Of a stretch of DNA of 64,000 bases, positions 30,336 to 61,537 are shown one piece after another; the first letter of the stretch is position 1, and the number at the start of each line of letters is the position of its first letter. Origin of the DNA: Trypanosoma brucei (Eukaryota); contig CH464491.1 of assembly GCA_000002445.1 (NCBI GenBank), forward strand, positions 3,104,001 through 3,168,000, read 5' to 3'. The notes under the pieces were generated by a model that was not told the origin of the DNA, did no database searches, and saw only the letters and a program-made list of their open reading frames with translations. A program made the translations under genes and the position numbers.

Positions 30336-33012
30336 TTGGCGAAGCGCTTGTAAGCACTGCTCAAAAGCATTTCCACACACACACACACACCTTCACGTTG
30401 TCGCGGAAACGGGGGAGGGGGGAAGGAAGGGGTGCATTTCCCTGTCGGAAAGTTTGCAATAAGTGGAAAGAGCTCGGGCATGCATAACCAAACGAAGCCG
30501 CTGTGTGCTTCTGTTTGTATTCTGCATAAAGTGCAAATATGAGTGGAACTGAAGGTGACTAGTCGTTTCTGACCCTTATCGTAGCGCACTCGTCCCGTCT
30601 CTGTAATTGCGCTGCCGCCGCATATAACCAACTTTGCAGGACCCACCCCTGCGCTGCGTTGCGCAGCGGCAAGAGTGAGGGCAAGGACGCAGTATTGCAC
30701 CCTTCCTTGCCCTATTATCGAAATCCTTTTGTGCGTACGCTTTGATTTGTGTGAATCCCTTTCTGCATTGGAAAATTGAAAACAAAAAAATACTTACACG
30801 TACCCGAAGAAGAGGCAAAAAAAGCCTTTTGATTTTGAATAACATACGTGGGCGCGTTGTTACTTGAATCGTGTTGATGCGGCGCCCATGGTGAAAAGCG
30901 TTGCAAAGGCGTTGTATCTCTATGGGGGTGCATCTCCTGCGTTCGACCTCCTCCCCACTTGATGAATTTGACAAGACACGATAGCGGCCAAATGAAGCAA
31001 GGGTAATTGAGTTTCTTGCGACGCCGGGAGGGCACGCATTCGGAGGGGAAGTTCCAAATTAGTTCAATAGCACAGGAGAGAATGGAAAGGAAGTAAACCG
31101 CGTGAATGTGATTCCTCCCACGGACCCGCCCCCCCCCCAGGATGTGAAAAAGGGCCAATGTTCCATGCCGGCGCTAAATTTCTCAGAGGGAAGGTCAGCA
31201 GCCTGCGGGAGCGGCGGGGTTGCGAGACACAAGTCAAAGCCAACGCACCGCGACTCGGAAAAGGTAGCGAAGGGCGAGGTTCATGAGGTGCTGCGCTTAG
31301 CAAAACCCCACAAACTCCGTTCCGCACTCCACACACCCACATGCCTCGCGCAAAACAAAAAACTGAGCACCCCGGAGCCTGTTTATTGGTACTCGTTTCA
31401 CCCCATCCGGGTGAACATTCACGATGTCGCCAACCCAAGCTGCCAGGTCCACAACCGGTAACAGCTTTGACAAAATGGCAAGCGGCTTTGCAGTGCTGAT
31501 CGATGCCCCGTTTGCCTTGCGACTCACGGCACTCCTCATCTGTGGAACATACGTTGAACCCCTAGAACATGCCAGCCGTAGACGAGTGCCACCGTCGACC
31601 ACGGGCCCTCACACCGGTTACCGCAGGTCACTCGGAAAGGAAGGGGGAGGCGGTCACGGGATGGCGAAGTCGGAGCGCAGGTCAGCGTGACAGAAAAGGA
31701 TAGCCGCATATCATCCGCATGAGCAATGTGGAAAACAACTGGGCGATTGGTTGAATGCAAGTGGGCACTGAAGAATCATGGGGCGTTTCCCCGCACCATC
31801 TCAAACCCCTGGAGGGTATCGTTACACGTGGAGATGCCGAATTTAGGCACCACCAATACAGCCGCACATACTTGCGTGACAGCCAAGTTCACTAGCCACA
31901 ACACGAAGAAGGCAGAATAGGTTAGATAAACCCAGAAGACTGGAAGAAGGATATTGGAAAACAGGAACGGTGCTGAACGGAAGGCCACCGGTGGTGTCTT
32001 CCTCGGATGAAGGCGGCGATGCCTGTTGGGAATTGTCCACCCGCCTCGGAGATTGCGGAAACAAGTGCGCTCAAACCTGCGGATGGCAGGCGCAAATAAA
32101 GGACATGCGGTGGGGAGCGGGAGGGGGGTACGACGAGAGGGCACTCAACGGGTTAAGGGATATACCGCCGAAAGAAAAAAAAGTGGATCAACGCACCCTC
32201 TCCTCTCCGCCGCAACCATTCCCAAAACCCTCCTTCTCACCTCTGTTGCCGTTCCCGGCCCGAGTGATGCGCACCGGTGTGAAGCCGAAGCCCTACTGCC
32301 CTGTGAAGTGCTTTTGAAAGATAACAGGATACGCCCAGTTACGAGGAAGCGAAAGTTTAGGTTGCAACGCCGCATGTGCGACCTTCGACGATTCCCTCCT
32401 GCTCTCAGTCGGTTGCGGGCACCTTCCTTCACATAGCCACGTGGCTTTCTCAGTCGTCTTTTTAGCTCAATCAGTCTTCCACATGTATTACCGCAGTGCG
32501 GAAGTCAGCGGGTTTCTGCTTACGTTTCCTTCTGCGACCTTCAAGCGCCTCCCCGCACCATGCGGTGGTCTCTAAACTGCATCTTTAATGTGATTTTGGG
32601 TGCGTGTCTGGCTCCTCCGAGCCTTCCACATTCCATGTTGGGCTACGGCTTCCCCTTGGTTCTTTCATCTTCGCTAACAACCGCGATCGCCCCATCCACT
32701 TTCCGTTCCGTTGCGCAGCATTCGGTAGACAAGCCGTTCCCCATTACCACCGGGAGCCATCTTAGTAACCCCATGAGGTCTCTTAGAAGTGCCTGCAGGC
32801 GCCCCGCACCAACACCTAACTCGTTATTCGCTCCGCTTCAAGGTTCCCAAGAGCCGCTCGCATTCCCCGATGCGTTGGGTTTCGGGAGCCACTTAATAGA
32901 ACAAAACTGAAGGTGTGCAACCTTCACTGCTACCCTCAGGCAGCCTATCTCAGAACGGCGATACACTATACCGAGGCGAAATTATTCCAGGCTTCTGCTG
33001 CCTAAAATTTAA

Positions 33013-35900: not shown

Positions 35901-38199
35901 TGGCTTGAATGCAAACGATGATGGTGTTGTTTGGAAATAAGCAGTGCCTATCCTTGGATGTTTTACGTTTTTTTCAGCAATTTTTCTGCGATAATGAAAA
36001 ATACCGTTCCCTCGGCTGCTTTGCGCTCCACTCCGCAGGTGACGAATATAGTTTACTAACCATATCCTGATCATCCTCACTTGATATCTTCCATAGCACG
36101 GAAGCTGTCCCGTTCATCTCGTCGGGCGGGGATCTACTTTGTAGTGATTTAATGCCACAACGGTGCACATATGATTCACGGAGCCGAATGTTCTTGTATA
36201 AACCATACGGTTCCCACCACCGTCTTTCTTTCTTTTCTTCGCCCCAGCTTAGTGGCCTAAGCAGCTTTGCCGCAACGCCTACCGTCGATCTCTTGGGTTA
36301 GGGCCCTGATTGTTGCGGCTGAGGTAAATGGTTCGGGTAATCTTTCAACCTGAGAGCAATATTCCATCCCATTAGTTTGCGGGCGGTGCTCTCAAGGGTT
36401 GCTAGCCGGAGCAATATCACATCTGCTGCGGATTTGCTTGCATTCGGGAAGTGGTATTATAATGCCCTTCCCTCCGCTTCTTCGGTGCTACACTGTGTTC
36501 CACACAGTGGCTATACAGTTTCGGTAGGTTTTTTTGTCCCCGCCGAGCTTCTATAATCCCACGCACGCATTTTCCCTGTGGACACCGTTCTCACGGATAA
36601 TCCACTTAACACTAACTTTAATTCCTCCATGGCAAGCAAGATGTGCATATAATTCCCTACCCCAGGCAGCGCCGTCTCCGGAGTCCCTAGAACCTTTGCG
36701 AATTCCCTCCTGCTAATCCCTGCAGTTGCCTTTTCTTTGCTGCTTTTGCACCCGGTGGTACCTGCCATGTACCACCACTGGGGTGCTCCGCAGCGTTGGT
36801 GCATATGCCGCATTTACTAAGCTCTGGGTTCATGACTCAGTGAGATTGTGTACACACCCACTGCTACCGCGCGTTCCCTCCAGTGCAGCATACATGGTGA
36901 CAGTGTCATGGCTGTCACGGGTTATGCCAAATATGTTCACACAAGCGTGTATTTATGGGCACTTTTCTGGTGTTAGTCTAACCGACGCTCTTCTAAACTC
37001 TCCCGTTTGTCCTGGCCAATGCACCACATACGTACAGCCCTCTATCGCCACTGACACCCTTAACTCCTTAAGGTGCCATGCTATTCGAGTGTTCCGGAAA
37101 ACCAGGTATCACTTTGCCTTCTACTCGTTCACCGCCCAGACACAACCCCCGCGTAATGCGAAGTCCACCTTAGTCTTCGTGAATGTACTTTGCCAACGCA
37201 AGTCTTTTCAGCTGGGGGAGGACTAAAGTATTCTACCGCGATCCACGTGAAATAGGATCTGTGGTGTTTTTTTTTCCGATATTACCACGCACGGTATCAG
37301 TGGTAGCAAAGCACATATAATCAAAAAAGCGTGCTTTCACGCCCAGTAGATAATAAAGATATCCCTCGCCACCACCGGAGGGGTTACGGCGTTGCTGTAT
37401 GCCCCCACCGTAGTGAACAATGGCAGTTCGGCGGCGTCAATATCCAAAGACTGAGTGATGCAGAAACTTGGTTTGTCCTACAAGGGTATCCGCACAAGAT
37501 GCATGTGCGACACCCCTACTTGCATGCAGAACAGGTGCCTGTTGTGCAACTTCGAAAGCAAATTAGGTCGTTTCTCCGTAACGCATTAAGCTGGGTGAGG
37601 ACAATCATTTAACATCAGAGGACACTGTAAAGGTGTAAGAAGTCTTAGCGGTCGCGCACAGTCAATGCGACAAACACATTCATGTTGTCCTGTGTTTAGT
37701 GCCACAGCCAGAATAAAGGAGCCTGCAGTAGAAAGTAATAAGCTCCTTTCCGCCCCCACCCCGTTCAGGTAGCAGTTCCGTGTTCCCCCATGGTGGGGTT
37801 CCTGTGGAGGCCAATCAACACTGAAAAATATTGGCAACAAAACGAGACTCAGCGAAGAGTAGGCAAACAAAATAAAAAAAAAGTGCAATTGCTCTGCCTA
37901 ACACACTGTTGTTATAGTATCCCTGAGTCCGGAAGGCGGCGCCCCATGCATCGCGCAACGTCACAAAGTCAACCAAACACAGAGAGCATGCAGATTGATA
38001 TCACACGGAAATGATGAACATTCGTCCGTCAGAGGAGGGGAAATAGCGACGGCACGCGCCACTTATCTCGAGAACACGGTAACAAGCACGGCAGCAAACG
38101 ATACGACCCGCACTTAAATATTTCTTTACTTTTCATTGTCTACATACCAGAAACGCAACACCGCCATATCTCTTAAAATCTGCACACCCTTTCATTTCT

Positions 38200-38987
38200 G
38201 CGCACTAGTTTATGAAAAAAAAACAAAGAGTCCCCAAGACAAGCTTGATGCCCAGAAACCACAGTTACTAAACGGTACATCACATTCTTCAGTGCTTCCC
38301 CCTACACCAAAAAGTTGGAAAAACAAACAAACATATGCTACATCAACATTACGACACTGCAGAGCTCCAGAGACATGATTCACACATGCAGAAACAATTA
38401 AAGACAAAACAACTAAAGGACAGAGATGACATATTTTTGTAATAACAATATGGGCACCAACATTTTTCGGAAGATCAGCTAAGGGTAAAAAAAACATATA
38501 TACACATCAGATCCAACCTACAAAATTCAACAAAAAGGAAAGCACAGCAAAAGATCTAGCAAATATATGTAGTAAAACAGAAACGAAGACACAGCAATTA
38601 TTTATATTATTAAAATTACAAATTCTAAACACATTTTAATAAATCAACAAAGCTCCAAGAATGTCAAAAAAAAAAACACGTAACCCACAACAATAAACAA
38701 AACAGGAAACCGCCACCCACAAAAACTGCAACAGCCAACAAAATAGGATTAAACAAAAAAATGAAAAACCCCTCCGTCACCATAAAAACAAATTAATAAT
38801 ATACTAAGAAGAAAAAGCAACCATCCACCACCGAACACAAAAAAATAAGAATATAATATATAAAAAATAAAAAAATTCTAACAAATTATACGGAAGTGGA
38901 ATCTAAATGTAAATATATACAACACCGACTAAAAATCATAAAAAAACAAGAGCAAAAAATACATGAGCATAATTGACAACAAAAAAA
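38200..38987 (+). repeat. ~800 bp A/C-rich low-complexity tract (poly-A runs, acaaaa-like motifs) immediately 5' of repeat copy A2
   Basis: Direct reading: extreme A richness with almost no G/T on the + strand (..caaaaaaaaaaacacgtaacccacaacaataaacaaaacaggaaacc..). Confidence 0.85.
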
Positions 38988-41668
38988 TTAATGGCGTACA
39001 CTTCGCAAAACAACGCTCATCCACCATATCAACTCTCCGGTGACACAGCAGCACCAAACAGGCGCCGAGTCACCTTCCAACCCAGGAGTTACTCAGTGTG
39101 ACACACGTATATGTTGACTTTCATGCCACCACCAGTAGTACACTCACGCTGCTTCAAACCGTGTACCAGCTAACGGCAGGTATATTCATCCAGCACTATA
39201 AAGGAATTAAGCATCTAAGGATACGCAGGCCCTGCTGATTCTGAAACAGTCCCTAATACAATATTATCCTTACCACTAGAAGTAACTAAATTCATTAACA
39301 ATCATGAGGGATATAAAGATAGCAATCGGTTTCTGGAAAAGCACCGAACCAACAGTAAAGAGAAAGTCAACAACGCAGCCACAAGCGTCGAGTTACCAAG
39401 GAGGGGGGCGGTGGTTGGAAGTATTAACGACACATAACGCGCACAACAACTGCCCAATTAAGACGCTTTGCACCCTAAGATCCCCATCAATTCATTTAAC
39501 AAACAAAGAAAGGGATGAGAGGCGGGACTATCATACAGCCACGCTGCTAAGCCTTCCTACGTTAATGCAGAGTGCGGCGGATGTGACAGCAACCCCCCAA
39601 ACCAACAGAAAAAACTCAAGGAAATTATTCTTTACTTTGTATGTGCGTTCTTCTTTCATACATCATTCGGTAGCACTGCTATAGTCAGGAGAACAGAAGC
39701 GGCTTTATTAAAGAGCAATTGCCATTCCCTTAACAACACATCATCTCCTTTAACCAAACCCCATATCTCCTTCTTTCCGATTCTTGTTCCACTCAACTTT
39801 ACATATCCACAGATGGCTCCTTAGAGGGTTTCTTCCCCCTCGCAGTTAACGAGCCGCTCGGCCTTTGCCTCCGAATGCCGTCCATCTTCTCTTTCATTTC
39901 AGCCATCTGTTCCGCAAGCTTGGTGCGTGCGGCACTCAGCTTCGACAGTTTATCCTTAACTTCATCCTCGGCTTTAATTATATCGGCCTTCTGCTTCTCC
40001 AGGCCCTTCAATCTGAACTGCAGGTCCTTCATATTCTTATCGAACAGATTGTCCTGACTCCTCATGTCACCCATCAGCTCGGTCATTAAGTCCATGTTTT
40101 GCTTCCGGAACTCCGCTTCGCGCCGCGTAATGACGGCTTGCATTTCGATGAGTCTCCGGTCCATGGTTTATTGGGATTCCTTACCGAAGTATCACTTTAA
40201 GAATATCAGACTGCAGTAGAGGTCTTCACTGCAGTACGTAATAGCTATTCTGAATATATACACAGAACGCTATATTACGTTGTCCAAAAATATTTATATT
40301 CTCCCCACTGTTTTACCTTTCGTTGTTCTTTCAATACGAGCCTCAGCAAAAAGAAAAAAAATGATTTACAAAAATAGCCTAATACAGGATGCTTTGTCTA
40401 GGTATCGCAAACACTTGAAAAATCTGCAACTAGTAAGGAGGAAGAAGGCACAAATTGGGAGATGGCTGTGACAGTTGTAGTGTCCATAAAATAATTAGCA
40501 TATTACTAGACACGGGAATATGGAGAGAGTACACTTAGCCACACACCAGTAGCGCTACCGGATCTCTGATACACATTTTCACAACCGCAACAGCATCTTA
40601 TCTTGTTCCTTGTAGAAGATCCCATTGTTCACACTCATTAAGGAAGCATTAAATCGTCTCATACATAATAGAAAGGTGCTGTGGTAAAGAGAGTGGAAAT
40701 CCGCCTTATGGAAGTTAAAGAGGGAATCCATAACCCAACCGGTGCACTTCACGGAATAAATTAAAGCGCACGTATCCACGTATGCACATATTGGTAAAGT
40801 TAGCAAATGCAACACAGATGACAGAGGTACCGAACACCAAACAAATATATTATCAAAGTCTTCAATAATCACATGGTGTGGCAAAATCATGAAAGATACA
40901 CCGAACAAAGCGGCACGTGTCACGACTAGAGGTGTGAATGGCAAACGGCGAACAAAACACAGTCAATCAGACACCAAGCCATACGAGCATCAGGTAACTC
41001 CTAAGCGAGCCCTTCAACAGGAAAGAAGCAAAGTAACATTTTTCATCACTTGAAGGACTCCCTTCCAGTTATTGCAAGGTTAGTAAGCAGGTGTCGGTTC
41101 CTTGGCCCAATAGATAATCTTCCTTATTGATGCTCACATTCAATACGCCGAAAGAAATGGTACGGTGCGATTACCACCTCGGAAAAAAGCTCCACCCATG
41201 TAATGGATCCCCAATATAAGGGGCGTGCAACCTGGAAAGAAGGGCAAAAATAAAAAAGAGCCATCGCGGTTACACCTCGCCTTTACGCACTGTATGTGAT
41301 GTTCATGCCAAGCACACCCGTACTCCGCTACGTCCTCGCTGGCTCTGGAATCCCGCTGCCATGGAGGGGTGCCCACTCATGGTGGGGATGAAGACGCGTG
41401 GCGCCTGCCGCGCTGGGCAGGGGGGCGGGGGAAAGCGGAGGGAGGCCAGGCGACGTTTTTAACCGCCTGTGCGTCTCAGATTATCACCCCATATAGCACT
41501 GACCTACCCAGATTGGGAATTGCGAGCTCATTACCACTTCGTAAAAGATGGAACGACCAACACACGGCAACCAGCACATCGGCCCACGCACCCCTCCCTT
41601 CTCCACCAGGGGAGAAGCAAGAGTAGTGAATGCGACACCGCCTTGGGCATCTCACTGCGTTACCGCGG
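38988..41668 (+). repeat. Repeat unit copy A2 (direct orientation; 5'-truncated relative to A1; carries a 560 bp extension shared only with the inverted copy). Left arm of the long palindrome
   Basis: 38988-41105 matches A1 33782-35900. 41105-41668 is matched only by the reverse complement of 43296-43860. The arm ends at ...gcatctcactgcgttaccgcggcc. Confidence 0.9.
39799..40164 (-). CDS. 121-aa coiled-coil ORF (copy in A2)
   Basis: Identical translation to 34597..34962. Confidence 0.3.
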   Translation of the reverse strand: MDRRLIEMQAVITRREAEFRKQNMDLMTELMGDMRSQDNLFDKNMKDLQFRLKGLEKQKADIIKAEDEVKDKLSKLSAARTKLAEQMAEMKEKMDGIRRQRPSGSLTARGKKPSKEPSVDM

Positions 41669-43295
41669 CCCTACATCAACCGGATGCCCGAGTGAAATAG
41701 GATGGCCGCACTAAATAATATACTAGCAACCGCGGACCTGGCTTCTGGTAGACCCGTTGTTTTTATTGGCGATATAATTTTTTTTGTTTAAGCTTGTTAC
41801 ACCACTTTTTGTAGTTTGCTGAATAGGTATCTCCTTATATCTCTTGTCATCGGTATTAGATAACGGTAAAGGTGCTGAGCTGAATGTGGAGGTTTTACCT
41901 TTTTTCATTGGAAGCTGACCTATTATGTGCGTTAGGGTCTTAAGGCATTAAATGTTGCTATGAGCAGAGGGGTATATTGCCTTCAGCGCGTGTGTGTCTT
42001 CTCTGGGTGTGCGGTGCTTCCTTCCCAGAGAGGCACACCGTTCGCGACCAAAGGTCTGTTTAAAACCGTTGCTTCAGGTGTGCCGGCGGCCCTTCAACAT
42101 GATTGTTCTCGAACACTGTTTTGTTTAGCTGACTATGTGGACTTAAGGTAGGGAAAATACACTACCTTATTTAAACATTTTAGCACAAAAAATAAATCAG
42201 CAATTGCGGGGGATTTTACAAGTAACCTTTTGTTTCAACTGAAATCAGGAATACAAGGGTCGAATCTTCAGCGGAAATGGTGGCCTACCAAGTTAAGGAT
42301 ACAAAACTGACGGAGCACAAAACCACATCTGGACTCATGCGTAGACCGCGCCACTGTAGTGCCGAGTCATGTGTCAGAGTGAGAGGCGCCTTTGACAACA
42401 CGACTGGACAACTACTCGATTTCCCGTTTCAATATGCGCCACTCCGCCTAAGCATATTCTGCGCTCACTTTCAGGTGAAACGACCTCCAGAAGAGGAAAA
42501 GGTAAAATTAAAGCAGCAGAGCAACAACATGAGCAACCGTGAAAACAATAGATGCAAGTAACAGCATTCTGTAACAGAGGGCGCGTGTTCTGCGCGAAGT
42601 GCGTGTTAAGGGCTGGTGAAAGCCGCCGCCACTCAAAGAAAATTGGTTACTTAGCCCCGCCAAATCCCTGTATTTTAGTTTGGCCGCGCCCTTGTTGCTC
42701 CAGCCGCACGGCGTACACGCGTATTAGCATAGAATTCTCAACCATTCTTCCCGTATAATCTTAAACCTCTTCGGGGGAGCGTAATTGACTAACGCCACGC
42801 CTGAACGTATCTAAGGGCCTTCTGGAAATAATTTTTGCCTTGCAACGGATCTAGTGCGCTCCCCACTATGAGTTGATACCGTTGCCTTTCCGCCCCACTT
42901 TAATCCTCGTAGAATAAGATGAAGCCGCTCGGCTTTCGCTATCCGAGTAGGGTGCCGGAGCCTGGTAGCACGTTTGGGTGGCCCGCATCGCCAGGAGAAA
43001 CGAAATTATATCATTTCCCGCGATACACACCAAAACTTAACAAATACACCAGAGGCTAACTATTTCTTTACATTAGGCACTTCCTGCCAAAACAGCTGAT
43101 CGACACCGTCTCAACAAATGTAAGGCGTGGCTGTGAGCCTTCCTGGGGTCAGGAGGCGGCGGCGATGCAAGTGCCGGTTGGCGCCGGGGTGCCTGAATCG
43201 TTTGGGACTGTGGCCAGCACCCTTCGTATAAAACGCTTGCGAGTCGCCGGCCCCTCACGATTTGAGCATTACGTGCTTGTTGGCATTGAGGTTAC
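41669..43295. other. Unique ~1.6 kb central spacer of the palindrome (no repeat partner, no ORF over 100 aa)
   Basis: Flanked by exact inverted copies: 41369..41626(+)/43346..43603(-) and 41469..41714(+)/43255..43503(-) give identical translations on opposite strands. The sequence between the points where the arms diverge is single-copy in this window. Confidence 0.8.
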
Positions 43296-44807
43296 AGTGC
43301 TGGCCGCGGTAACGCAGTGAGATGCCCAAGGCGGTGTCGCATTCACTACTCTTGCTTCTCCCCTGGTGGAGAAGGGAGGGGTGCGTGGGCCGATGTGCTG
43401 GTTGCCGTGTGTTGGTCGTTCCATCTTTTACGAAGTGGTAATGAGCTCGCAATTCCCAATCTGGGTAGGTCAGTGCTATATGGGGTGATAATCTGAGACG
43501 CACAGGCGGTTAAAAACGTCGCCTGGCCTCCCTCCGCTTTCCCCCGCCCCCCTGCCCAGCGCGGCAGGCGCCACGCGTCTTCATCCCCACCATGAGTGGG
43601 CACCCCTCCATGGCAGCGGGATTCCAGAGCCAGCGAGGACGTAGCGGAGTACGGGTGTGCTTGGCATGAACATCACATACAGTGCGTAAAGGCGAGGTGT
43701 AACCGCGATGGCTCTTTTTTATTTTTGCCCTTCTTTCCAGGTTGCACGCCCCTTATATTGGGGATCCATTACATGGGTGGAGCTTTTTTCCGAGGTGGTA
43801 ATCGCACCGTACCATTTCTTTCGGCGTATTGAATGTGAGCATCAATAAGGAAGATTATCTATTGGGCCAAGGAACCGACATCTGCTTACTAACCTTGCAA
43901 TAACTGGAAGGGAGTCCTTCAAGTGATGAAAAATGTTACTTTGCTTCTTTCCTGTTGAAGGGCTCGCTTAGGAGTTACCTGATGCTCGTATGGCTTGGTG
44001 TCTGATTGACTGTGTTTTGTTCGCCGTTTGCCATTCACACCTCTAGTCGTGACACGTGCCGCTTTGTTCGGTGTATCTTTCATGATTTTGCCACACCATG
44101 TGATTATTGAAGACTTTGATAATATATTTGTTTGGTGTTCGGTACCTCTGTCATCTGTGTTGCATTTGCTAACTTTACCAATATGTGCATACGTGGATAC
44201 GTGCGCTTTAATTTATTCCGTGAAGTGCACCGGTTGGGTTATGGATTCCCTCTTTAACTTCCATAAGGCGGATTTCCACTCTCTTTACCACAGCACCTTT
44301 CTATTATGTATGAGACGATTTAATGCTTCCTTAATGAGTGTGAACAATGGGATCTTCTACAAGGAACAAGATAAGATGCTGTTGCGGTTGTGAAAATGTG
44401 TATCAGAGATCCGGTAGCGCTACTGGTGTGTGGCTAAGTGTACTCTCTCCATATTCCCGTGTCCAGTAATATGCTAATTATTTTATGGACACTACAACTG
44501 TCACAGCCATCTCCCAATTTGTGCCTTCTTCCTCCTTACTAGTTGCAGATTTTTCAAGTGTTTGCGATACCTAGACAAAGCATCCTGTATTAGGCTATTT
44601 TTGTAAATCATTTTTTTTCTTTTTGCTGAGGCTCGTATTGAAAGAACAACGAAAGGTAAAACAGAGGGGAGAATATAAATATTTTTGGACAACGTAATAT
44701 AGCGTTCTGTGTATATATTCAGAATAGCTATTACGTACTGCAGTGAAGACCTCTACTGCAGTCTGATATTCTTAAAGTGATACTTCGGTAAGGAATCCCA
44801 ATAAACC

Positions 44808-45173
44808 ATGGACCGGAGACTCATCGAAATGCAAGCCGTCATTACGCGGCGCGAAGCGGAGTTCCGGAAGCAAAACATGGACTTAATGACCGAGCTGATG
44901 GGTGACATGAGGAGTCAGGACAATCTGTTCGATAAGAATATGAAGGACCTGCAGTTCAGATTGAAGGGCCTGGAGAAGCAGAAGGCCGATATAATTAAAG
45001 CCGAGGATGAAGTTAAGGATAAACTGTCGAAGCTGAGTGCCGCACGCACCAAGCTTGCGGAACAGATGGCTGAAATGAAAGAGAAGATGGACGGCATTCG
45101 GAGGCAAAGGCCGAGCGGCTCGTTAACTGCGAGGGGGAAGAAACCCTCTAAGGAGCCATCTGTGGATATGTAA
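44808..45173 (+). CDS. 121-aa coiled-coil ORF (copy in A3, here on the + strand)
   Basis: Identical translation to 34597..34962 and 39799..40164. Confidence 0.3.
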   Translation: MDRRLIEMQAVITRREAEFRKQNMDLMTELMGDMRSQDNLFDKNMKDLQFRLKGLEKQKADIIKAEDEVKDKLSKLSAARTKLAEQMAEMKEKMDGIRRQRPSGSLTARGKKPSKEPSVDM

Positions 45174-45244
45174 AGTTGAGTGGAACAAGAATCGGAAAGA
45201 AGGAGATATGGGGTTTGGTAAAGGAGATGATGGTGTAAGGAATG

Positions 45245-45344
45245 NNNNNNNNNNNNNNNNNNNNNNNNNNNNNNNNNNNNNNNNNNNNNNNNNNNNNNNN
45301 NNNNNNNNNNNNNNNNNNNNNNNNNNNNNNNNNNNNNNNNNNNN
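45245..45344. other. Assembly gap (exactly 100 N) inside repeat copy A3
   Basis: Run of n characters. The sequence on both sides repeats ggggtttggt(t)aaaggagatgatg, so the gap sits in a locally duplicated or collapsed motif. Confidence 0.95.
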
Positions 45345-46905
45345 GGAAGAAGAGATTGGGGTTTGGTTAAAGGAGATGATGTGTTGTTAAGGGAATGGCA
45401 ATTGCTCTTTAATAAAGCCGCTTCTGTTCTCCTGACTATAGCAGTGCTACCGAATGATGTATGAAAGAAGAACGCACATACAAAGTAAAGAATAATTTCC
45501 TTGAGTTTTTTCTGTTGGTTTGGGGGGTTGCTGTCACATCCGCCGCACTCTGCATTAACGTAGGAAGGCTTAGCAGCGTGGCTGTATGATAGTCCCGCCT
45601 CTCATCCCTTTCTTTGTTTGTTAAATGANATTGATGGGGATCTTAGGGTGCAAAGCGTCTTAATTGGGCAGTTGTTGTGCGCGTTATGTGTCGTTAATAC
45701 TTCCAACCACCGCCCCCCTCCTTGGTAACTCGACGCTTGTGGCTGCGTTGTTGACTTTCTCTTTACTGTTGGTTCGGTGCTTTTCCAGAAACCGATTGCT
45801 ATCTTTATATCCCTCATGATTGTTAATGAATTTAGTTACTTCTAGTGGTAAGGATAATATTGTATTAGGGACTGTTTCAGAATCAGCAGGGCCTGCGTAT
45901 CCTTAGATGCTTAATTCCTTTATAGTGCTGGATGAAATATACCTGCCGTTAGCTGGTACACGGTTTGAAGCAGCGTGAGTGTACTACTGGTGGTGGCATG
46001 AAAGTCAACATATACGTGTGTCACACTGAGTAACTCCTGGGTTGGAAGGTGACTCGGCGCCTGTTTGGTGCTGCTGTGTCACCGGAGAGTTGATATGGTG
46101 GATGAGCGTTGTTTTGCGAAGTGTACGCCATTAATTTTTTCTGCAGATTTGTTGTGGTACCCACTGATAGTTTCTGTGACTTGGCCATATTGGGTTCCTC
46201 TGTGTCACTTACTCGTCCCACTGAATTGTTTGGTTGTTTTTATCCTGGCTCACCCACCTTCGGAGCGTCAATCTTCTTAACAGTTTGGATGCCGCTAGGG
46301 TTCACTATTGTATTTGATTTGATTCCTTATCGATCACATGCATGCCGCCGTGTATTTGCTTCCGAGTTGGATGGTAGTAGCATCCTTTAATGGCACCGAT
46401 CGTTTTCCTGCGTGACCCTGCCGAACCTCCCACTCCTACATTAGTAATTTTTGTTGGGTCGTTAATTTTACAGATCACAGGAGGAATCATATTGGCATTG
46501 GTTTTCGACCATGTATTATGCAAACGGCAAACTAAGGATTGAAACCAACTGCTCCTCTTGTGCTCGTCTCGCTAACACAAATGAATGCTCCACGAACAAT
46601 TGTGGATAGTGATGTGTGCTGTTTTGGGGTGGGCTTTGTGCTGCCTCCTTCTTTGTGTGTTGAGATACTGAGCTGTAACGAGTCCTGTATGCCTTACTAG
46701 TGTGGTGATCTCCATTTGATTTGAAAAGCCATTTATGAGTACTCCAGGTAACTCTGAGATTAGCACTTCAACTGCGTTAGGAGTGGTTTGAGTAATGTTT
46801 GAGTGCTGAAAGCAGTATTTTAAGTGTGGTGCGGACGATGCTTAAATGACGTTATTGACTGATGCAATGTGTCTGTATGTGTGTGTGTGCTCCTTGGGTT
46901 AGGGG

Positions 46906-47800
46906 TTTTAAAGTTAATCTTAGCTTTTTTTGTTCTTCCAGTTGAATGTTGTTGTTTATGTTTTTCGTGGATATAGTGTTGTTTTAAAGCGTAAGGAATT
47001 TTTTGACGATATATTTCTATTTATTATTTTAAATCTGTTGTTGGTGAATGTAGATTTTGTTTTGTTGACTTAATTTGTCTTCTTTTTTGTTTCTTTGTTC
47101 TTTTTTTTTTTTTGTGTGGTGCCTTGTAATTCTTCTTTTTTTATCTTGGTGATTTTGCATGATAATGCTTTGTGTGTGAATATTTGTTTACCGATTAGCT
47201 CATTAATGGTCATATGTGACTTATAAGTTCGTTTATTTGTGGCAGATTGTGTTATTTTTATATGGCTTTAGTTCATCTTGCTGCAGCGGTTTTTATTAGA
47301 TTAATTTTTCGATACCTGTTTGTTGACGTTAAAGTGTGTTGGTGAGTGATGGCCTCTTATCTTGGCGTGTTGCGACGCATAGTTCCATTATTACTTAGTT
47401 GTGTATAAGTGACTGCTCATCTTTTGCTAGTGGTTAATCATTGCGGATGGGGTTAAGCGAATCACGTATAATTAAAATTGAAAAATTGGTGGGAGCAGTT
47501 ACTGCACGGTGTTGCATCGTTGTTTGGTGTGTGTGTGTGGTGTTGCTGCCGTAACATGCAGCAAAAATCTCGGTACTGAATGCCTTTGTTTTGCATGCTA
47601 CAGTGCTTTGGCAACGAAATTCACCGCCTCCGTAACTTCGATGTACGGGGTGCTTGTGATTTGTTGCTAGTGCCTGTGTTTGAAGAGTGAAAGATATTTT
47701 CTATACCTAAAAGAAGTTGACATGAAAGGGTCTTGGCAAATGAATGGTGGCTCAATGAAACATAAAAAAGAGAGGGGTCTTTAAAAAAAAAAAAAAAGAA
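46906..47800 (+). repeat. ~0.9 kb G/T-rich low-complexity tract flanking the inverted copy (compositional mirror of the 38200-38987 A/C-rich tract)
   Basis: Direct reading: T/G-rich with poly-T runs (..ttgttcttttttttttttttgtgtggtgcc..). Not an exact reverse complement of the left tract but the same motif flavour, consistent with diverged outer palindrome arms. Confidence 0.7.
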
Positions 47801-49690
47801 CGCGCCTCTACGGTTCGCCAATATTAGTAAATGCCTTTAACTCTTCGCGTTGTATTCAGCTCGTGTTGGAGGCGTGCAAGCGTATCCTTGGTGTTGTTTA
47901 ATTCATATGTGCTCTGTGGAAGTGATGGCCTCCTAAATGTGGTACCAGAGACGGCAGTACTGCTCACATGGAGAACTGTGTTGTGTTTTGGTTGAGGTAT
48001 GTGGTGCAGCACAAGGATGAGTCGCTCTGTGCCGAGGCGCCGCTTTTCTACCTTGTCGGTGCGTGGCCGCGTGCAAATGGGCTGTCAGCACTATCCCTCC
48101 CAATGAAATTGTTATCGGTGCGAGATGGGATGTCCCTGGAGCCATGTGATGGATCCTTGAAAGCAGTCTGTAGAGCTGATTAGTTGGAAACCAAGTAGAT
48201 GAAGTCAAGTGTTTGGCGCATTCATCTTCGGTTAGCGGTATGCATCGAAACAACTTTTTTTCGTGAAGCGGAGGTCGTGGGGCTAAAGGGTAGCCAACCT
48301 CCACATCCCTGTTCATGTTGCTTTGTATGGCGCGTCCACCGAAAAGGCAAATGGCTGAAGGTAATCATATACGGAAATAGAGCAACACACTCTTTGACAG
48401 AAGGTGTTCGGCACTACTCTCCGAGCAGCAGGGGCACATGGTTCGTACAGGTTCGGGTGACGCAACTGACGGCTGAAAGTATAGCGACAGGCACTACATT
48501 CTGTTCTCCACCTGAACACTTTGGGCGAGCAGATGTTTCCCCGGACATTTTCACTTCTTGTGGCAGAGAGGTTGAATCGTTTGCATACCGTCTGCAAAAT
48601 GACATCTACCCCGGCATTGGCGTTTGTTTTGCAACCCACGGTGGGACATGCATGGCATGTCACCAACTTCTGAGAACGAGGCTCCTGATCATTCAGAATA
48701 CCTTCTGGGAATGAGAATGCACGACATATTATCCAGGAGGAAATCAAGAGCGGGTATCTTCGTGTTGTCCAAGCGGTCGGATCAAGGGTTGGCATGCTAT
48801 TTCGCCGCGATGCCACGCACACTGAATGCGAACAGGGCTTGTGACCTTGTTGTCTGTAATCTGATCACCTTTCCGTCATCGAGACTGCCTTGTCACCGGG
48901 CCTGCAAGGTTACTGAAGGGAGGAGGGTTTGGATTCTCAACGAGGCATGAGCAGGCTTTTCCTGATTGAAAATAGCCAGCGGCGATGATAAATTCTGATT
49001 TCCTAGGCATCCACCCTTTGATCCATCACGTTCCGGAGCGTCTGGTCCGGATGAAGGTTTGACCATTCAATTTCTTCCGTTATTCTTGTTTTGCTCATGG
49101 CAGAAGTTTTGCCGCGCGGTGTTTCCATTTTTTTTTTTCTTTTGCATTCCAGCTCCCGTCAAGTCAGTTTTACCTGACTCCAGTTTCCACCAACCCTCGC
49201 ACTACCTTTCGGCGGAGTAACCCTATGATCGGTGTTGTGCGCGTGCCCATAGCAGGGCGATGCAATGAGCGCCTCCTCGCTCGGCCATCGAAGGAGGTCC
49301 CTAAAAGTTATCAAGAAGAAAAGAAAGCACCGAATGGTAGCGTTTTGCTGTACCACGTTTTTAAGATGACATAGTTCGGTAGCAAAATTTGTGACGAAAA
49401 TGAACACACACACACACACGTATATATATATATACTCTCAAGCTAAGGTAGTTTGAGACTTGCTTTGGTTAGGCCGTTTTTTGTGCTGTCGGGAGACTTT
49501 TCCCCCCTGGAAACCTTTCCCTGTTAAGCGCCGGTGAGGGTGGTTACAGCCACAGCGCCGCGTGTGACAAGCATGATGATTAAGCACCCCTCGGAAGAAA
49601 CCCTTTATCCCTTGATGTAGGAAAATCCACTCGGCACGTGTTCGCCTTCGAGTTTTTGCCAGCTTAGACCATTCTAAGGTTTGGCTTTCT

Positions 49691-50680
49691 TCATCTGCGT
49701 GGGCCAGTTTTGAGACACCGCTGATTCCATTCCAAGAAGCGCCGTTCGCACCGCGTTGTGCAAATGGTTACTTTTTTGCTGGCGGTAAGTGGCACCTCGG
49801 GGAGAAACTGCCGGTATAAAGAAAGGCTTAGGTTGGCCAGCGTAAGTGAGCCTAGTTCCACGCTAGCTTCCATCAGTAGTTCAGCAGCTACAGACCCGCG
49901 TTTTTCGTAGCTTCCGGGTAGAGACAGTCCGCAGTCTGCTCCGCCTCCTGTGATGCAGTCTTCCATAACAAAAGTTGCTTGTGAAGAAGCTATATCTCCC
50001 ATAGCCAAACAAAGCCCCAAACCGCGCAGGAAAGGCACCCAGTTCTCGTTGCTCACCCCCTTCGCACGGCATTTCTGCACGACGGAACGGTCATCCCCGT
50101 CGTACTCGCCAAGAAGGTCCACAAGCAGCCTTAGCAGAACGTCCGACCGCTCCTCTCCAAAAAACAACTTGAACTTTTCCGGATGTCGCATGACACTTAT
50201 GGGATGAACGAAAAATTGTGATGGTTTGACGTTTGGGGCGATGGCACCGTGCAACACCGCTCTTTCAAAGATTAAGCGACTCTCAAACAGGCAGTAGGCG
50301 TAAACGTGGGGGTGATACGGCAGTGAAATCAGCCTTACTGCTTCGGTTGTGGAGTAACCACAGGGCGGTGCTGTGTCAGAAGAAAATGGCAGGTGCATAG
50401 ACAAGAGGTCATTATCCTCAGAAGCACTCGATGCCTTTTTCCGTTCGGCACCGAATGTCCTTTCAACCCATGACCCTCGGTTGCACTTCTGTGTGAACTG
50501 ACAAAGCGGGCGACAAACTTTCATTAAATACTTTACCTTACTTTGTTGTAAAAGCAGCTGGGGGTGGGTGGTTGAGGTGCTCGACATGTGGTATTTGAAG
50601 GAAGGGGAAACATGGGTAGGGTTGAGAGTGCTCCCAACAGTGGCTGCGCCGGCTTTGAGACTAATCGGTGACAGTGGCAA
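49691..50680 (-). CDS. Hypothetical protein (329 aa) on the minus strand; the only candidate minus-strand gene in the window
   Basis: Long ORF with non-repetitive, protein-like composition (..CRPLCQFTQKCNRGSWVERTFGAERKK..HPHVYAYCLFESRLIFERAVLHGAIAPNVKP..). The only long opposite-strand ORF is 85 aa. No family recognised. Confidence 0.4.
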   Translation of the reverse strand: MPLSPISLKAGAATVGSTLNPTHVSPSFKYHMSSTSTTHPQLLLQQSKVKYLMKVCRPLCQFTQKCNRGSWVERTFGAERKKASSASEDNDLLSMHLPFSSDTAPPCGYSTTEAVRLISLPYHPHVYAYCLFESRLIFERAVLHGAIAPNVKPSQFFVHPISVMRHPEKFKLFFGEERSDVLLRLLVDLLGEYDGDDRSVVQKCRAKGVSNENWVPFLRGLGLCLAMGDIASSQATFVMEDCITGGGADCGLSLPGSYEKRGSVAAELLMEASVELGSLTLANLSLSLYRQFLPEVPLTASKKVTICTTRCERRFLEWNQRCLKTGPRR

Positions 50681-51686
50681 CTAAAAGCGTTCTGAGTGAA
50701 CAGAGCTGTGACCGGCTTCCACGAGGTTGTCCCTTTAGATCTCAAGGTGGGCTGCGCGGCCGCCCCCGTGGCGGGTTTCTGCTTCTTTTTTTTTTCCGCG
50801 GCCCCCCGGCATCAAAAAGAAATAGAAAAACAAAGCAGAAACGGGGGAAAATGACGAGACCCGGGTGCTTTAATTCCCTTTTCGCTTTGTTGTGCTTTGC
50901 TGCGAACCGCTTGCACTGAGGAATGGGCCCCTGGTGGCACGTCAACACTTGACCTTTCGGGCTGAATTTGTTGAAACCGTAGAAGGTTGCGGTTTGCTGC
51001 ATTTTCAGCACGTTTTCTGTCCTGCGGTAGCACCTCCCGCGTCGGGTGTTGCGGCTTCGCCCCGAACAGCTTGTGTGGTGGTCGGTTGGCCACATCCTGT
51101 GGGATACCACCGATTGGGGCCGTTGTTCCTTCGTCTGGTTTGCAGCACCAGCGTCGTCGGTGAAGGGTGGTGGCGTTACTCGTTCTAATCGGCTTCTCTG
51201 GATTTCTGAAGTTCTGTCGCTCCATGCCTTTGAGAGCATAATATGGTGTCAGGCGGGGGGGGGGGGCTCCCAGTTTGAGTGAAGCTGGTCCTGCTCCCCT
51301 CCCCTGGAGGTTGCTTCCCCTTCCGCCGATATTGAGCAGGGATCTGCGTGAAAAATCCTACCCATGATTGTGGGTGTGGGACTGACTGCTTGGTCAAGCG
51401 TCTTTTTCTTTCGTATAGATTTGAAAAAAAATGTTGTTGGCGTCCTGGGTGTGGTCGTGGTTCAGTAACCATTTTCTTTTCTTTTTCTTGCGCTCGAGCA
51501 AACACAAATATTATCGACGCCGACTGCCTAACTAGGTTAGTCGTGAGCCATTGTTGAAATTTATACCGTTAAATCCGGGCGGAATAGACGGTAAAGGGTG
51601 ACGAAAAAAGGGGGAAAAAGAGCATCTCAAGTTATATGACATTAGCTACTCAGCTATTAGTACTTGGAGTCATCGACTAGGGTGAA
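50681..51686. promoter_or_regulatory. Putative divergent strand-switch region (possible Pol II transcription start zone) between the minus-strand ORF and the downstream + gene block; contains a G12 run at 51255-51266
   Basis: Gene polarity flips here if 49691..50680(-) is genuine. There are G-rich and C-rich homopolymer tracts (ccgcccccgtggcggg at ~50760; aggcgggggggggggggctcc at 51251). Kinetoplastid divergent SSRs are known transcription start regions. Confidence 0.3.
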
Positions 51687-52370
51687 ATGGTGGACGAGCT
51701 TCCACCAGTACTGTCTGGAGTTGGCACAACGGACTCGGTACCGCGTGTAAACGAGCACGAGCCTACAAGTCCTTCTGTGGATTTTGAAGGGCAAGAGATG
51801 CTACTGGAGCCGGGAACCTCCACGATCAACGATGAAAGTAATTCAGCTCTGTTCTGTGGTGCGGGCGACCCTAAAGAATTACAAGCCGAGCCGAGGGATT
51901 CTAGGGACAGGACGGGAATAGTATCGAGACAACTTATCACTCCGCAACAACAACAACAACTGGGAATATCTACCTGCAGTAGAAAGAGTTTGGAGCAAAA
52001 GATAAGTATTCTAGAGGCAACCATAGCTACTCAGAAGAAGGAAATCATTCTACTACAAAGGCAGCTTCAGTCTAGGTCGACGGGGGCGACTGACCATCGT
52101 CTTGCAAATGCTCTAAAAGAGATTGCTGCCCTGAAGGAGGCATTAAATCATGCAAATGGGAAAGCTGAAAGTGAGCGCGAACCTGCAGCTTTGCAGATGC
52201 AGGCTACGATTGAGAGGCTCTCCACCGAAAGAAATGAGTTGATGAACTGCTTGCGGAAGCAAAACAAACTAATAGAGGCGTTAAAACGGCAAAAAGTACA
52301 CCTGGAATCGGCTACACTCCTCAATATAATGGAAAAAGAGATTGAAAAATACTTTGAATTAGCTCGATGA
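51687..52370 (+). CDS. Hypothetical coiled-coil protein (227 aa)
   Basis: C-terminal half is heptad/charged-rich (KISILEATIATQKKEIILLQRQLQ...ALKEIAALKEALNHANGKAESERE..). First + strand ORF after the putative switch. Confidence 0.45.
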   Translation: MVDELPPVLSGVGTTDSVPRVNEHEPTSPSVDFEGQEMLLEPGTSTINDESNSALFCGAGDPKELQAEPRDSRDRTGIVSRQLITPQQQQQLGISTCSRKSLEQKISILEATIATQKKEIILLQRQLQSRSTGATDHRLANALKEIAALKEALNHANGKAESEREPAALQMQATIERLSTERNELMNCLRKQNKLIEALKRQKVHLESATLLNIMEKEIEKYFELAR

Positions 52371-59292: not shown

Positions 59293-59550
59293 ATTGAATT
59301 TTGTTTTGTTCCCATGAGTAGATGCTAGATTTTAAAAATTATATTCAAACCCAGTTTGACTTAGTAGTCTTAACCAAATCGTGCTATTAAAGGAAATACA
59401 CCCGCTGCGTATGTCTATACGTGAGAAGACGCGCCGCTACCTAAGGCGGCGGAGTGTGGATTTTTATCTTCTATCTTATTTATGTGCCCTATCAATGCGT
59501 CATTCTATATTCTGATTGTTGTTAAGTTGTTGAGGGAGTCGCTCATACAC

Positions 59551-60309
59551 ATGCATGGTGCTTTGGTGTTTGGGTTCGTCGTCGTTTTTTTATCATTTCT
59601 AGTCTTATGGCAACGTGCATCTTGCGTAAGTAAGATACACCTACTTGGGGACGTTCTTTTTGTGTTCGCACACCCGGACGATGAAGCGATGTTCTTCTCG
59701 CCGCTGTTGGATTATGTCAGGCGCCATGGCCTGAATGCCCACTTTCTCTGCTTGTCCAATGGAAACTACAGTGGCTTGGGCACAGTCAGGGAGAAAGAGT
59801 TAGTTGCCAGTGCGGAGTACTTTGGAGTTAACAGGCGTAGCGTCCGCGTGGTAGACCACCCGGACCTACAGGATGGTCCAGACAACTTATGGAATACCGA
59901 AATAGTCCAACGAGAGGTTCTTTCGTACCTGCACAGCGTCAAGGACATCCGCACTGTTATCACGTTTGATCATAGGGGAGTCTCTTCTCATGCGAATCAC
60001 GTAGCGGTGTATGAGGGAGTTCTCTTGGCGAAAAAGAATCTTCCTCCCGGGATACTATTTTTGAGTCTGCACACGAGGGACTTATTGGAAAAGTACGTGG
60101 GTATACTTTCCACAGTAGGCTATACGGTAGGAATACATCGTTGCGGCGGACGCCGAAACCACGTAATCCTCATTCCGCCGACCTCATTGTTCACAAGCTT
60201 TTCCGCCATGAGGAAACACAAAACCCAACTTGTGTGGTTCCGCTATTTGTTTGTTTGGTTTTCTTCCTACTCTTACGTTAATGAAGTGAAGGAATTGGGG
60301 GTCGCATGA
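59551..60309 (+). CDS. GPI12: N-acetylglucosaminyl-phosphatidylinositol de-N-acetylase (PIG-L/GPI12 family)
   Basis: ORF 59482..60309. N-terminal TM anchor, then VLFVFAHPDDEAMFFSP (the PIG-L HPDDE motif) and ..HANHVAVY (conserved His motif). Confidence 0.8.
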   Translation: MHGALVFGFVVVFLSFLVLWQRASCVSKIHLLGDVLFVFAHPDDEAMFFSPLLDYVRRHGLNAHFLCLSNGNYSGLGTVREKELVASAEYFGVNRRSVRVVDHPDLQDGPDNLWNTEIVQREVLSYLHSVKDIRTVITFDHRGVSSHANHVAVYEGVLLAKKNLPPGILFLSLHTRDLLEKYVGILSTVGYTVGIHRCGGRRNHVILIPPTSLFTSFSAMRKHKTQLVWFRYLFVWFSSYSYVNEVKELGVA

Positions 60310-61299: not shown

Positions 61300-61537
61300 T
61301 AATATACATGCATATTTCCCCTCTGTATCTCTTTACCACTTGTACTATTATGTCATTTTCTTTGTTGTTGCCGCCTTTCTTTGGGGGGGGGGGGTAACCT
61401 TTTCATCCCATGTGGAGGAGGGCATGTGTAGAAAGAATAGTTGTTTCTGCTGTAATATTGATGTTTGTGGCATCGATGTTTGCTTATAGGCGCTCCTTGT
61501 TTCCTTTTTCTTTTGATAGGAAGTTGCACTAAACAGC

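Follow-up and report, generated by a model that had tools for sequence, protein, structure and literature searches.

The window, a 64-kb stretch of Trypanosoma brucei TREU927 chromosome 11 (Tb927_11_01_v4, 3,104,001-3,168,000), holds two plus-strand gene units and, between them, a gene-bearing inverted repeat and a minus-strand gene that faces the first gene of the downstream unit. The first-pass annotation had placed all flanking genes on the plus strand, and this polarity stands because every other minus-strand ORF of at least 150 aa outside 30-51 kb overlaps plus-strand genes and has a non-coding codon score. The locus as a whole is unremarkable and for the most part known, since an annotated, conserved gene faces the first gene of a cluster with a published start; the minus-strand gene, the plus-strand start region, and the CAP15 unit of the inverted repeat are already on record. 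The junction and its flanking genes comprise the following features, numbered from the first nucleotide of the window.

29370..30335, plus strand: Tb11.01.3790, 321 aa, which closes the upstream plus-strand unit in published unit lists
49691..50587, minus strand: Tb11.01.3820 CDS, 298 aa, conserved hypothetical protein; the open frame extends to 50680
50588..51686, no strand: intergenic gap of 1,099 bp from the minus-strand gene to the first gene of the plus-strand unit, holding the plus-strand start region
50742..51239, minus strand: Tb11.01.3830, an annotated ORF of 165 aa with a codon score of -0.066
50814..50850, minus strand: polypyrimidine tract of a candidate trans-splice acceptor for Tb11.01.3820, with the first AG at 50786-50785, as read from the sequence
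51255..51266, plus strand: G12 homopolymer, which is G15 in T. b. gambiense
51473..51498, plus strand: polypyrimidine tract of a candidate trans-splice acceptor for Tb11.01.3840, with its AG at 51497-51498, predicted in the same way
51687..52370, plus strand: Tb11.01.3840, 227 aa, which opens a plus-strand unit of ~181 kb ending with Tb11.01.4560

The stop-free minus-strand ORF at 49691..50680 spans 329 codons from a TTG, or 298 aa counted from its first ATG at 50587. Its 298-aa product is 100% identical over its full length to XP_829262.1 of T. brucei TREU927, and its coordinates (Tb927_11_01_v4 3154587..3153691) match those of Tb11.01.3820 in Table S2 of Kolev 2010 exactly. By ID arithmetic anchored on GPI12 (Tb927.11.12080) and Tb11.01.3810 (Tb927.11.11990), Tb11.01.3820 corresponds to Tb927.11.12000. 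A homology search, proposed for the 329-aa ORF when it was first flagged as a candidate gene, recovered homologues in T. b. gambiense (97% identity), T. congolense (47%), and T. cruzi (44%) with E values of 1e-68 to 1e-205, and a profile search with the product returned 55 cluster representatives; the homologues span Trypanosoma, Phytomonas, and beyond. The codon-usage score was +0.07 per codon, compared with -0.15 to -0.27 in the other five frames. The candidate is therefore borne out by its identity to XP_829262.1, its homologues, and its codon score. It could have been argued that the ORF arose by chance or through misannotation, with plus-strand transcription running straight through 30-52 kb, because two adjacent annotated minus-strand ORFs, Tb11.01.3810 and Tb11.01.3830, do seem spurious. 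This explanation is refuted by homology and also conflicts with the coding-like codon score, the stop of the upstream plus-strand unit at 30335, the separate start listed at 51.7 kb, and the minus-strand transcripts measured at 35.4-40.4 kb, leaving it a vanishingly small probability. Judged by these comparisons, Tb11.01.3820 is a real, conserved, and previously annotated T. brucei gene. Its product is a conserved all-alpha kinetoplastid protein of unassigned function; searches of Pfam and of solved structures with the 298-aa sequence yielded no significant match, and PDB sequence searches with five proteins of the window matched nothing. Tb11.01.3830 has no Pfam match and no detected transcript (Kolev 2010), and it is probably not a gene.

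The genomic neighbourhood of the orthologues differs among species. In T. cruzi, T. rangeli, and T. theileri, a gene of ~560 aa, the Tb11.01.3820 orthologue, a gene of ~117 aa, and cathepsin B follow one another on a single strand, and Phytomonas retains the pair formed by the orthologue and a 108-aa homologue of the small gene. On chromosome 6 of T. b. gambiense, a 595-aa gene, a gap of 470 bp, a 121-aa gene, and cathepsin B stand in the same order, and no trace of the Tb11.01.3820 gene was seen when it was looked for in that cluster; on chromosome 11, the head-to-head layout is identical to that of the T. brucei window. Because the co-directional cluster of other trypanosomes exists on T. 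brucei chromosome 6 without Tb11.01.3820, the gene has been relocated, and we count its identity, conservation, and relocation as demonstrated, with the direction of the move based on five species loci, of which that of T. vivax is a short contig. The ancestral place of Tb11.01.3820 was inside the co-directional cluster, between the ~560-aa and ~117-aa genes, and on the line of descent to the African trypanosomes it moved singly and in reversed orientation to a position between two plus-strand units on chromosome 11. This single-gene reversed move accounts for the local polarity reversal. As a separate matter, we considered whether the 121-aa gene of the inverted repeat corresponds to the small cluster gene next to the orthologue in T. 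cruzi, T. rangeli, and Phytomonas, and rejected this on an alignment with 15-18% identity; the T. brucei homologue of that conserved small cluster gene lies on chromosome 6 and is not the 121-aa repeat gene.

The interval on the 3' side of the minus-strand gene is occupied by the inverted repeat and its transcription units.

33005..35904, minus strand: left arm, repeat copy 1, with CAP15 at 34597..34962
38982..41670, minus strand: left arm, repeat copy 2, with CAP15 at 39799..40164; transcribed as Tb11.NT.142
41671..43301, no strand: unique central spacer of the repeat map, from which published transcripts diverge
43302..46915, plus strand: right arm, with CAP15 Tb11.01.3805 at 44808..45173 and a 100-N assembly gap at 45245-45344
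47551..49690, no strand: tail-to-tail zone from the end of Tb11.NT.144 (plus strand) to the stop codon of the minus-strand gene
within 47551..49690, minus strand: Tb11.01.3810 (Tb927.11.11990), an unsupported ORF with negative codon scores

Around its 1.6-kb spacer, the arms of this repeat (33.0-46.9 kb) show 99.4-100% identity, and its gene-bearing units measure 2.7-3.6 kb. CAP15 is present in three identical 121-aa copies, two on the minus strand and one on the plus strand, with a codon score of +0.34 and a homologue in T. congolense at 66% identity. Tb11.01.3820 is thus not the only minus-strand gene of the window, as the first-pass annotation had it, since two CAP15 copies (34597..34962 and 39799..40164) share its strand. 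Two independent tables name Tb11.01.3805 as CAP15 (corset-associated, subpellicular microtubule protein 15); a text search of PMC9117871 for 'CAP15' matched CAP156 alone. Two of the three copies are unannotated in GeneDB v4, and repeat copy 2 (38982-41670) is on record only as the 'novel transcripts' Tb11.NT.141 and Tb11.NT.142. On the minus strand, Tb11.NT.142 starts at 40429 and the published transcripts reach 35378; on the plus strand, Tb11.NT.143 starts at 42913 and they reach 47550. CAP15 appears in the published lists as a single-gene 'Divergent' unit. These outward transcripts place a divergent start in the middle of the inverted repeat, with a transcript-poor, tail-to-tail zone on either side (30.3-35.4 kb and 47.55-49.69 kb). 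The 30.4-49.6 kb interval as a whole is therefore not the single convergent junction that had been proposed. In the second zone, Tb11.01.3810 is annotated as 'stop, -1, converge' with an rpkm of 1.3 in bloodstream forms, where the median is 30.6, and CTR9 RNAi raises its level about 10-11-fold. The tRNA genes and the centromere suggested for the interval found no counterpart in the sequence: ARAGORN predicted 0 tRNA genes in the whole window, an Rfam scan of the whole window gave 0 matches at gathering score, and Tandem Repeats Finder detected no AT-rich satellite array or other tandem satellite at 29.5-52 kb, just a 2-copy T-rich micro-repeat. The gene IDs of the locus have no entry in the supplements of Reynolds 2016, which we consulted on H3.V, H4.V, and base J. 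A match of the CAP15 repeat to IR7 or CTU49 (Tschudi 2012) was rejected by coordinates, the window lying at 3.104-3.168 Mb.

Since Tb11.01.3820 is a real gene, a geometric head-to-head junction exists at 50.6-51.7 kb, where its ATG at 50587 opposes the plus-strand ATG at 51687 of another conserved gene 1.1 kb away. The G12 run is located exactly where it had been reported, at 51255-51266. Runs of at least nine G yielded 11 overlapping matches in the window versus 0.35 expected, at four loci, two of which lie ~10 kb inside the plus-strand unit (G12 at 61383-61394 and G9 at 63043-63051), and comparable G/C runs occur within the co-directional clusters of T. cruzi and T. rangeli. Because long G runs also sit inside units and co-directional clusters, the G12 run is not diagnostic of a start site. 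Siegel 2009 reportedly comments on G runs at transcription starts. The C-rich run described near 50760 proved to be merely C5/C6 amid GC-rich sequence. The G+T fraction of the plus strand was 0.52-0.625 over 50.5-51.6 kb, and no 200-bp window favoured the minus strand, so that the gap is GT-rich only toward the plus-strand unit, and the minus-strand arm lacks a GT-rich sense strand.

Published transcription data classify the start in the same one-sided manner. Table S14 of Kolev 2010 lists the plus-strand unit Tb11.01.3840->Tb11.01.4560 (181 kb) with a start typed 'Internal', Table S5 of Maree 2017 likewise types it 'Internal' and not 'Divergent', and the start lists of both groups contain no minus-strand unit at Tb11.01.3820. 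The preceding plus-strand unit, Tb11.01.3260->3790, ends at 30335 and the next begins at 51687, as is expected of an internal start. According to the Kolev 2010 tables, productive transcription is documented in the plus direction only, the minus-strand data being from procyclic cells, in which Tb11.01.3820 ranks among the annotated ORFs without a detectable transcript by RNA-seq (Table S2). Of the divergent start that had been claimed for 50.7-51.7 kb, the head-to-head arrangement and the Pol II start of the plus-strand unit hold up, and the minus-strand unit is missing from the published lists.

A genuine divergent strand-switch region at 50.7-51.7 kb, with two productive arms, a single-gene minus-strand unit, and G12 and C-rich start elements, would suit the head-to-head genes, and single-gene 'Divergent' units do occur in published lists (e.g., Tb11.01.3240 and CAP15). 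Start regions are also intrinsically bidirectional; Kolev 2010 found 5'-triphosphate reads, sense and weaker antisense, at every Pol II start region, and this includes the internal class. Moreover, Ouna 2012 labels Tb11.01.3810, the next minus-strand ORF downstream, as the final ORF ahead of a convergent stop, and therefore treats 3830-3820-3810 as a minus-strand unit. Such a region is nevertheless hard to reconcile with the 'Internal' typing by two groups, the undetected minus-strand transcript in procyclic cells, the lack of a GT-rich element on the minus strand, and the occurrence of long G runs away from starts. Its spacing is likewise atypical, as the 18 'Divergent' pairs in Table S5 of Maree 2017 lie the usual several kilobases apart (4.2-12.7 kb) and the 1.1-kb gap is ~4-fold shorter than the shortest of them. 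We consider two productive arms rather unlikely.

We regard it as probable that Tb11.01.3820 is a relocated annotated gene transcribed weakly by the antisense arm of a one-sided 'internal' start region. Tb11.01.3820 would have no start region of its own and would be transcribed at a low level by the upstream-antisense arm of the intrinsically bidirectional Tb11.01.3840 start region. The one-sided GT-rich composition of the gap matches the direction-dependent, GT-rich promoter elements of Wedel 2017 and thus fits a weak minus-strand arm. The sense and antisense reads of Kolev 2010 and the minus-strand unit implied by Ouna 2012 count for this reading as well. The transcript may be trans-spliced near 50785, as a polypyrimidine tract and an AG are present upstream of the minus-strand ATG, and splicing at the candidate AG (50786-50785) would leave a 5' UTR of ~200 nt. 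Our search for an experimental splice site of Tb11.01.3820 found none, and the spliced leader sought in two Logan contigs bearing the gene was absent, these contigs being genomic. Minus-strand transcription would stop at 47.5-49.7 kb on meeting the plus-strand CAP15 unit. From these features we infer that the antisense arm expresses the gene, where its transcript is spliced, and where transcription ends; expression of the gene as such is assumed from its conservation. The undetected transcript in procyclic cells and the published start lists, which have no minus-strand unit at this site, count against the reading.

Comparison between subspecies bears on whether the gene is still in use. The start effectively being one-directional, the relocated gene could be silent in T. 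brucei, a relic that is still intact but drifting toward pseudogene status. This would agree with the undetected transcript in procyclic cells and with the low rpkm of the neighbouring minus-strand ORF in bloodstream forms (1.3 versus a median of 30.6). The start codon also varies between subspecies (372 aa versus 298 aa, an in-frame TAG occupying 50681-50683 of the TREU927 sequence), and all 8 amino-acid differences in the alignment with T. b. gambiense fall within the N-terminal 134 residues. However, the C-terminal 164 residues carry zero amino-acid changes between subspecies despite synonymous changes in the gene (dN/dS = 0.41, from only 14 substitutions), and an unbroken reading frame is kept in T. 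b. brucei, T. b. gambiense, T. b. equiperdum, T. congolense, and T. vivax. The 47% identity to a T. congolense orthologue named on the same chromosome points in the same direction, and the confident AlphaFold model (pLDDT above 94 over residues ~80-290) would be as expected for a maintained fold. A silent relic thus appears unlikely, and weak expression from the antisense arm remains the reading we prefer. In a bolder form, which we put forward only tentatively, the gene would be kept alive solely by the weak antisense arm, perhaps with expression confined to a life stage yet to be sampled; it would then be half of the tightest functional head-to-head pair in T. brucei (1.1 kb), form a one-gene unit, and define an uncharacterised all-alpha fold family reaching beyond kinetoplastids.

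The additions made here are small, consisting of the evidence for a single-gene relocation, the unusually short 1.1-kb head-to-head gap, and a protein that is conserved across trypanosomatids and matches no known domain or fold. Their relevance beyond annotation is also small, and the case illustrates that a 'polarity reversal' call in trypanosomes can be resolved from public data. If the antisense arm of an 'internal' start does express it, Tb11.01.3820 would be a handy natural reporter of dispersed-promoter directionality.

Three known systems invite comparison with the locus. The CAP15 repeat resembles the siRNA-yielding inverted repeats IR1-IR7 (Tschudi 2012) in having long, near-perfect arms around a 1.6-kb spacer. 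Unlike them, it bears an expressed gene in each arm, with transcription running outward from the centre, and at ~3.137-3.151 Mb it is not among the seven, IR7 lying at 4.219-4.231 Mb. With trypanosomatid divergent strand-switch regions, the junction shares first genes on opposite strands in head-to-head orientation and a G run in the gap; it differs from the 18 listed pairs in its far shorter gap, and in that the plus-strand arm alone is documented and the minus-strand arm would consist of one gene whose transcript was undetected in procyclic cells. The 'Internal' Pol II start regions (Siegel 2009; Kolev 2010; Wedel 2017) form exactly the class in which the site is listed, and it resembles them in its sense strand, which is GT-rich ahead of Tb11.01.3840, the first gene, and in its position between two plus-strand units after a transcript-poor gap. 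It departs from this class in the conserved protein-coding gene lying antisense just 1.1 kb upstream, so that antisense initiation here would enter a real gene rather than non-coding DNA.

Homology, codon usage and published annotation together indicate that the minus-strand reading frame, which the first-pass annotation had proposed as a 329-aa gene, is real and coding. Read from an ATG at 50587 to 49691, its 298 codons match XP_829262.1/EAN80150.1 of Trypanosoma brucei brucei TREU927, entered as 'hypothetical protein, conserved', with 100% identity, and relatives were found across trypanosomatids, with identities of 97% in T. b. gambiense, 47% in T. congolense and 44% in T. cruzi. When 1.8 billion representatives were searched with a profile, 55 proteins passed E <= 0.001, of which 35 passed E <= 1e-10; they take in T. 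rangeli, T. vivax and Phytomonas as well as longer unnamed environmental proteins. A codon-usage score with 15 confident window genes as its training set was +0.07 per codon for this frame, whereas the other frames scored -0.15 to -0.27. Comparison with T. b. gambiense revealed 6 synonymous and 8 non-synonymous changes (dN/dS 0.41), with all eight amino-acid differences in the alignment confined to the N-terminal 134 residues. The T. b. gambiense product is annotated as 372 aa, from an ATG corresponding to 50812(-); in TREU927 an in-frame TAG at 50683-50681 makes the product begin at 50587, and conservation in other species does not reach into the extension. The gene is Tb11.01.3820, at 3154587..3153691 on the minus strand of Tb927_11_01_v4 (Kolev et al. 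2010 Table S2, PMC2936537), which places the window at 3,104,001-3,168,000 of that version of chromosome 11. An identical offset holds for Tb11.01.3850, Tb11.01.3860, Tb11.01.3890 and the CAP15 poly(A) site, and Tb427 coordinates (Maree et al. 2017 Table S5) agree at a slightly different offset. Published ID pairs equate Tb11.01.3810 with Tb927.11.11990 and GPI12 with Tb927.11.12080; counting along the gene order would make GPI12 (the PIG-L gene, 59482..60309) Tb11.01.3900, and the regular ID step of 10 gives Tb927.11.12000 for the minus-strand gene, by arithmetic rather than look-up. AlphaFold2, given 39 homologues, produced an all-helical model that is confident over residues ~80-290 (pLDDT above 94), and R188, E244 and W287 were invariant across the alignment. 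Pfam gave no match for the product or for ten homologues, nor did a PDB sequence search or Foldseek against the PDB (best E-value 0.74) for the product itself.

The gene appears to have moved. The T. cruzi, T. rangeli and T. theileri orthologues each lie inside a single co-directional cluster (CFAP47-like, ..., CAF1, ..., a ~560-aa gene, the orthologue, a ~117-aa gene, cathepsin B), and in Phytomonas a homologue of the small gene directly follows the orthologue. T. b. gambiense keeps the cluster on chromosome 6 as a 595-aa gene, 470 bp, the small gene (72-76% identical to those of the other species) and cathepsin B, and tblastn found no trace of the minus-strand gene in this cluster. The 470-bp gap, at positions 11789-12258 of the locus, marks the ancestral site, flanked by the 595-aa gene on one side and by the ~117-aa gene with cathepsin B on the other. 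None of the T. cruzi neighbours was present in the window, and a T. vivax contig likewise carries the orthologue without the small gene downstream. The simplest reading of these gene orders is the relocation of a single gene, in the ancestor of African trypanosomes, into the gap between two units in reverse orientation. GPI12 has LmxM.09.0040 as its Leishmania orthologue, which suggests that the plus-strand unit from 51687 matches a Leishmania chromosome end; the junction may thus mark the edge between two synteny blocks.

The flanks of the window are plus-strand throughout, with Pfam-supported genes that include SF3B1, gamma-COP, COX15, PP1 and a WD40 protein; the PIG-L and PEX11-like genes were named via precomputed Pfam hits on T. 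b. gambiense orthologues. A 480-bp direct repeat (1132-1611 and 1889-2368, 99.6% identity) lies near the window start. The relocated gene had been taken for the only protein-like minus-strand frame, but CAP15 (corset-associated protein 15, 121 aa), whose codon score of +0.34 tops the window and which has a 66% identical homologue in T. congolense, also has two minus-strand copies among its three; the remaining minus-strand frames have codon scores typical of the shadow of plus-strand genes. Each CAP15 copy sits in a ~3.5-kb repeat unit present three times at 99.4-100% identity, a unique 1.6-kb spacer separating the left from the right arms. The following features, with transcripts from Kolev 2010 Table S7 and CAP15 copies from sequence and codon score, make up the interval:

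33005-35904, repeat copy, left, direct
34597..34962, minus strand, CAP15 copy
38301->35378, minus strand, transcript Tb11.NT.140
39290->38400, minus strand, transcript Tb11.NT.141
38982-41670, repeat copy, left, direct
39799..40164, minus strand, CAP15 copy
40429->39400, minus strand, transcript Tb11.NT.142, covering a CAP15 copy
42913->44435, plus strand, transcript Tb11.NT.143
43302-46915, repeat copy, right, inverted
44808..45173, plus strand, CAP15 copy Tb11.01.3805
45836->47550, plus strand, transcript Tb11.NT.144

Two independent tables name Tb11.01.3805 as CAP15, and it is listed as a one-gene 'Divergent' unit (Kolev 2010 Table S14, PMC2936537). Together with the transcripts, this listing points to a separate divergent start at the repeat centre. 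The 30.4-49.6 kb interval, previously read as one convergent junction, thus holds a divergent start flanked on each side by a tail-to-tail zone (30.3-35.4 kb and 47.55-49.69 kb). Searches of it for tRNA genes, Rfam families and a satellite array found none, contrary to the suggestion of tRNA genes or a centromere. The two minus-strand CAP15 copies (34597..34962 and 39799..40164) appear unannotated in GeneDB v4, the second being recorded solely within 'novel transcript' Tb11.NT.142, and the 121-aa sequence returned no NCBI-named T. brucei entry from the protein database. Between the left repeat copies, 38501-39000 (500 bp) is 55% A on the plus strand, inside the minus-strand transcript Tb11.NT.141; a C10 run at 31129-31138 (G10 on the minus strand) lies ~800 bp past the last upstream plus-strand gene, in a transcript-free zone. 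Tschudi 2012 lists seven long inverted repeats, and this one is not among them. The right arm contains a 100-N assembly gap (45245-45344) and a single N at 45629; because of the gap, copy number and exact structure may be assembly-dependent and need long-read confirmation. T. b. gambiense has the same arrangement at ~98% identity, perhaps not as independent evidence, since its assembly was built with TREU927 as reference.

The head-to-head geometry held up, and so did the start zone near 51 kb, where two published lists begin a Pol II unit: Tb11.01.3840 (51687) to Tb11.01.4560, ~181 kb (Kolev 2010 Table S14, PMC2936537; Maree 2017 Table S5). The gap had been put forward as divergent; however, both lists type this unit as 'Internal' and contain no minus-strand unit at 50.6-51.7 kb, and its ATG-to-ATG distance is 1.1 kb versus 4.2-12.7 kb between the first genes of 18 'Divergent' pairs (Maree 2017 table). 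The plus-strand G+T fraction is 0.52-0.625 over the whole gap, with no turn towards the minus strand, and reaches about the window's 95th percentile at 51.0-51.5 kb. GT-rich elements drive transcription direction-dependently (Wedel 2017), so this one-sided composition favours a start aimed at the plus-strand unit. The G12 run lies exactly at 51255-51266 as described, but as a marker of a start site it carries little weight: stretches of at least 9 G are over-represented across the whole window, two of their four loci sit ~10 kb inside the plus-strand unit, and G/C runs of 13-17 also turn up within co-directional T. cruzi and T. rangeli clusters. Splice-type signals precede both ATGs and confine initiation for either gene to roughly 50.85-51.47 kb:

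50850-50814, minus strand, polypyrimidine tract, then AG at 50786-50785, upstream of the minus-strand gene ATG
51473-51489, plus strand, polypyrimidine tract, then AG at 51497-51498, upstream of the Tb11.01.3840 ATG

A true two-armed divergent region, which the geometry would allow, is unlikely. Tb11.01.3820, Tb11.01.3810 and Tb11.01.3830 are among 805 annotated ORFs without their own detectable procyclic transcript (Kolev 2010 Table S2, PMC2936537), as would be expected if the relocated gene were a silent relic, a reading that we consider improbable. Sense and weaker antisense 5'-triphosphate reads come from every Pol II start region, the internal class among them (Kolev 2010, PMC2936537), and the relocated gene probably depends on the antisense arm of the plus-strand unit's start region. 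Such dependence would explain both survival under selection and the missing transcript in the 2010 procyclic data set. Tb11.01.3810, downstream on the minus strand, is annotated as the final ORF ahead of a convergent stop, has an rpkm of 1.3 versus a bloodstream-form median of 30.6, and rises about 10-11-fold upon CTR9 RNAi (Ouna 2012), a pattern that fits a weakly transcribed minus arm ending there. Overall, the gene, the geometry and the start zone of the first-pass annotation stand, while the sole minus-strand gene and the single convergent junction do not. The minus-strand gene, the plus-strand start region and the CAP15 unit were all previously on record, and the finding is already known.
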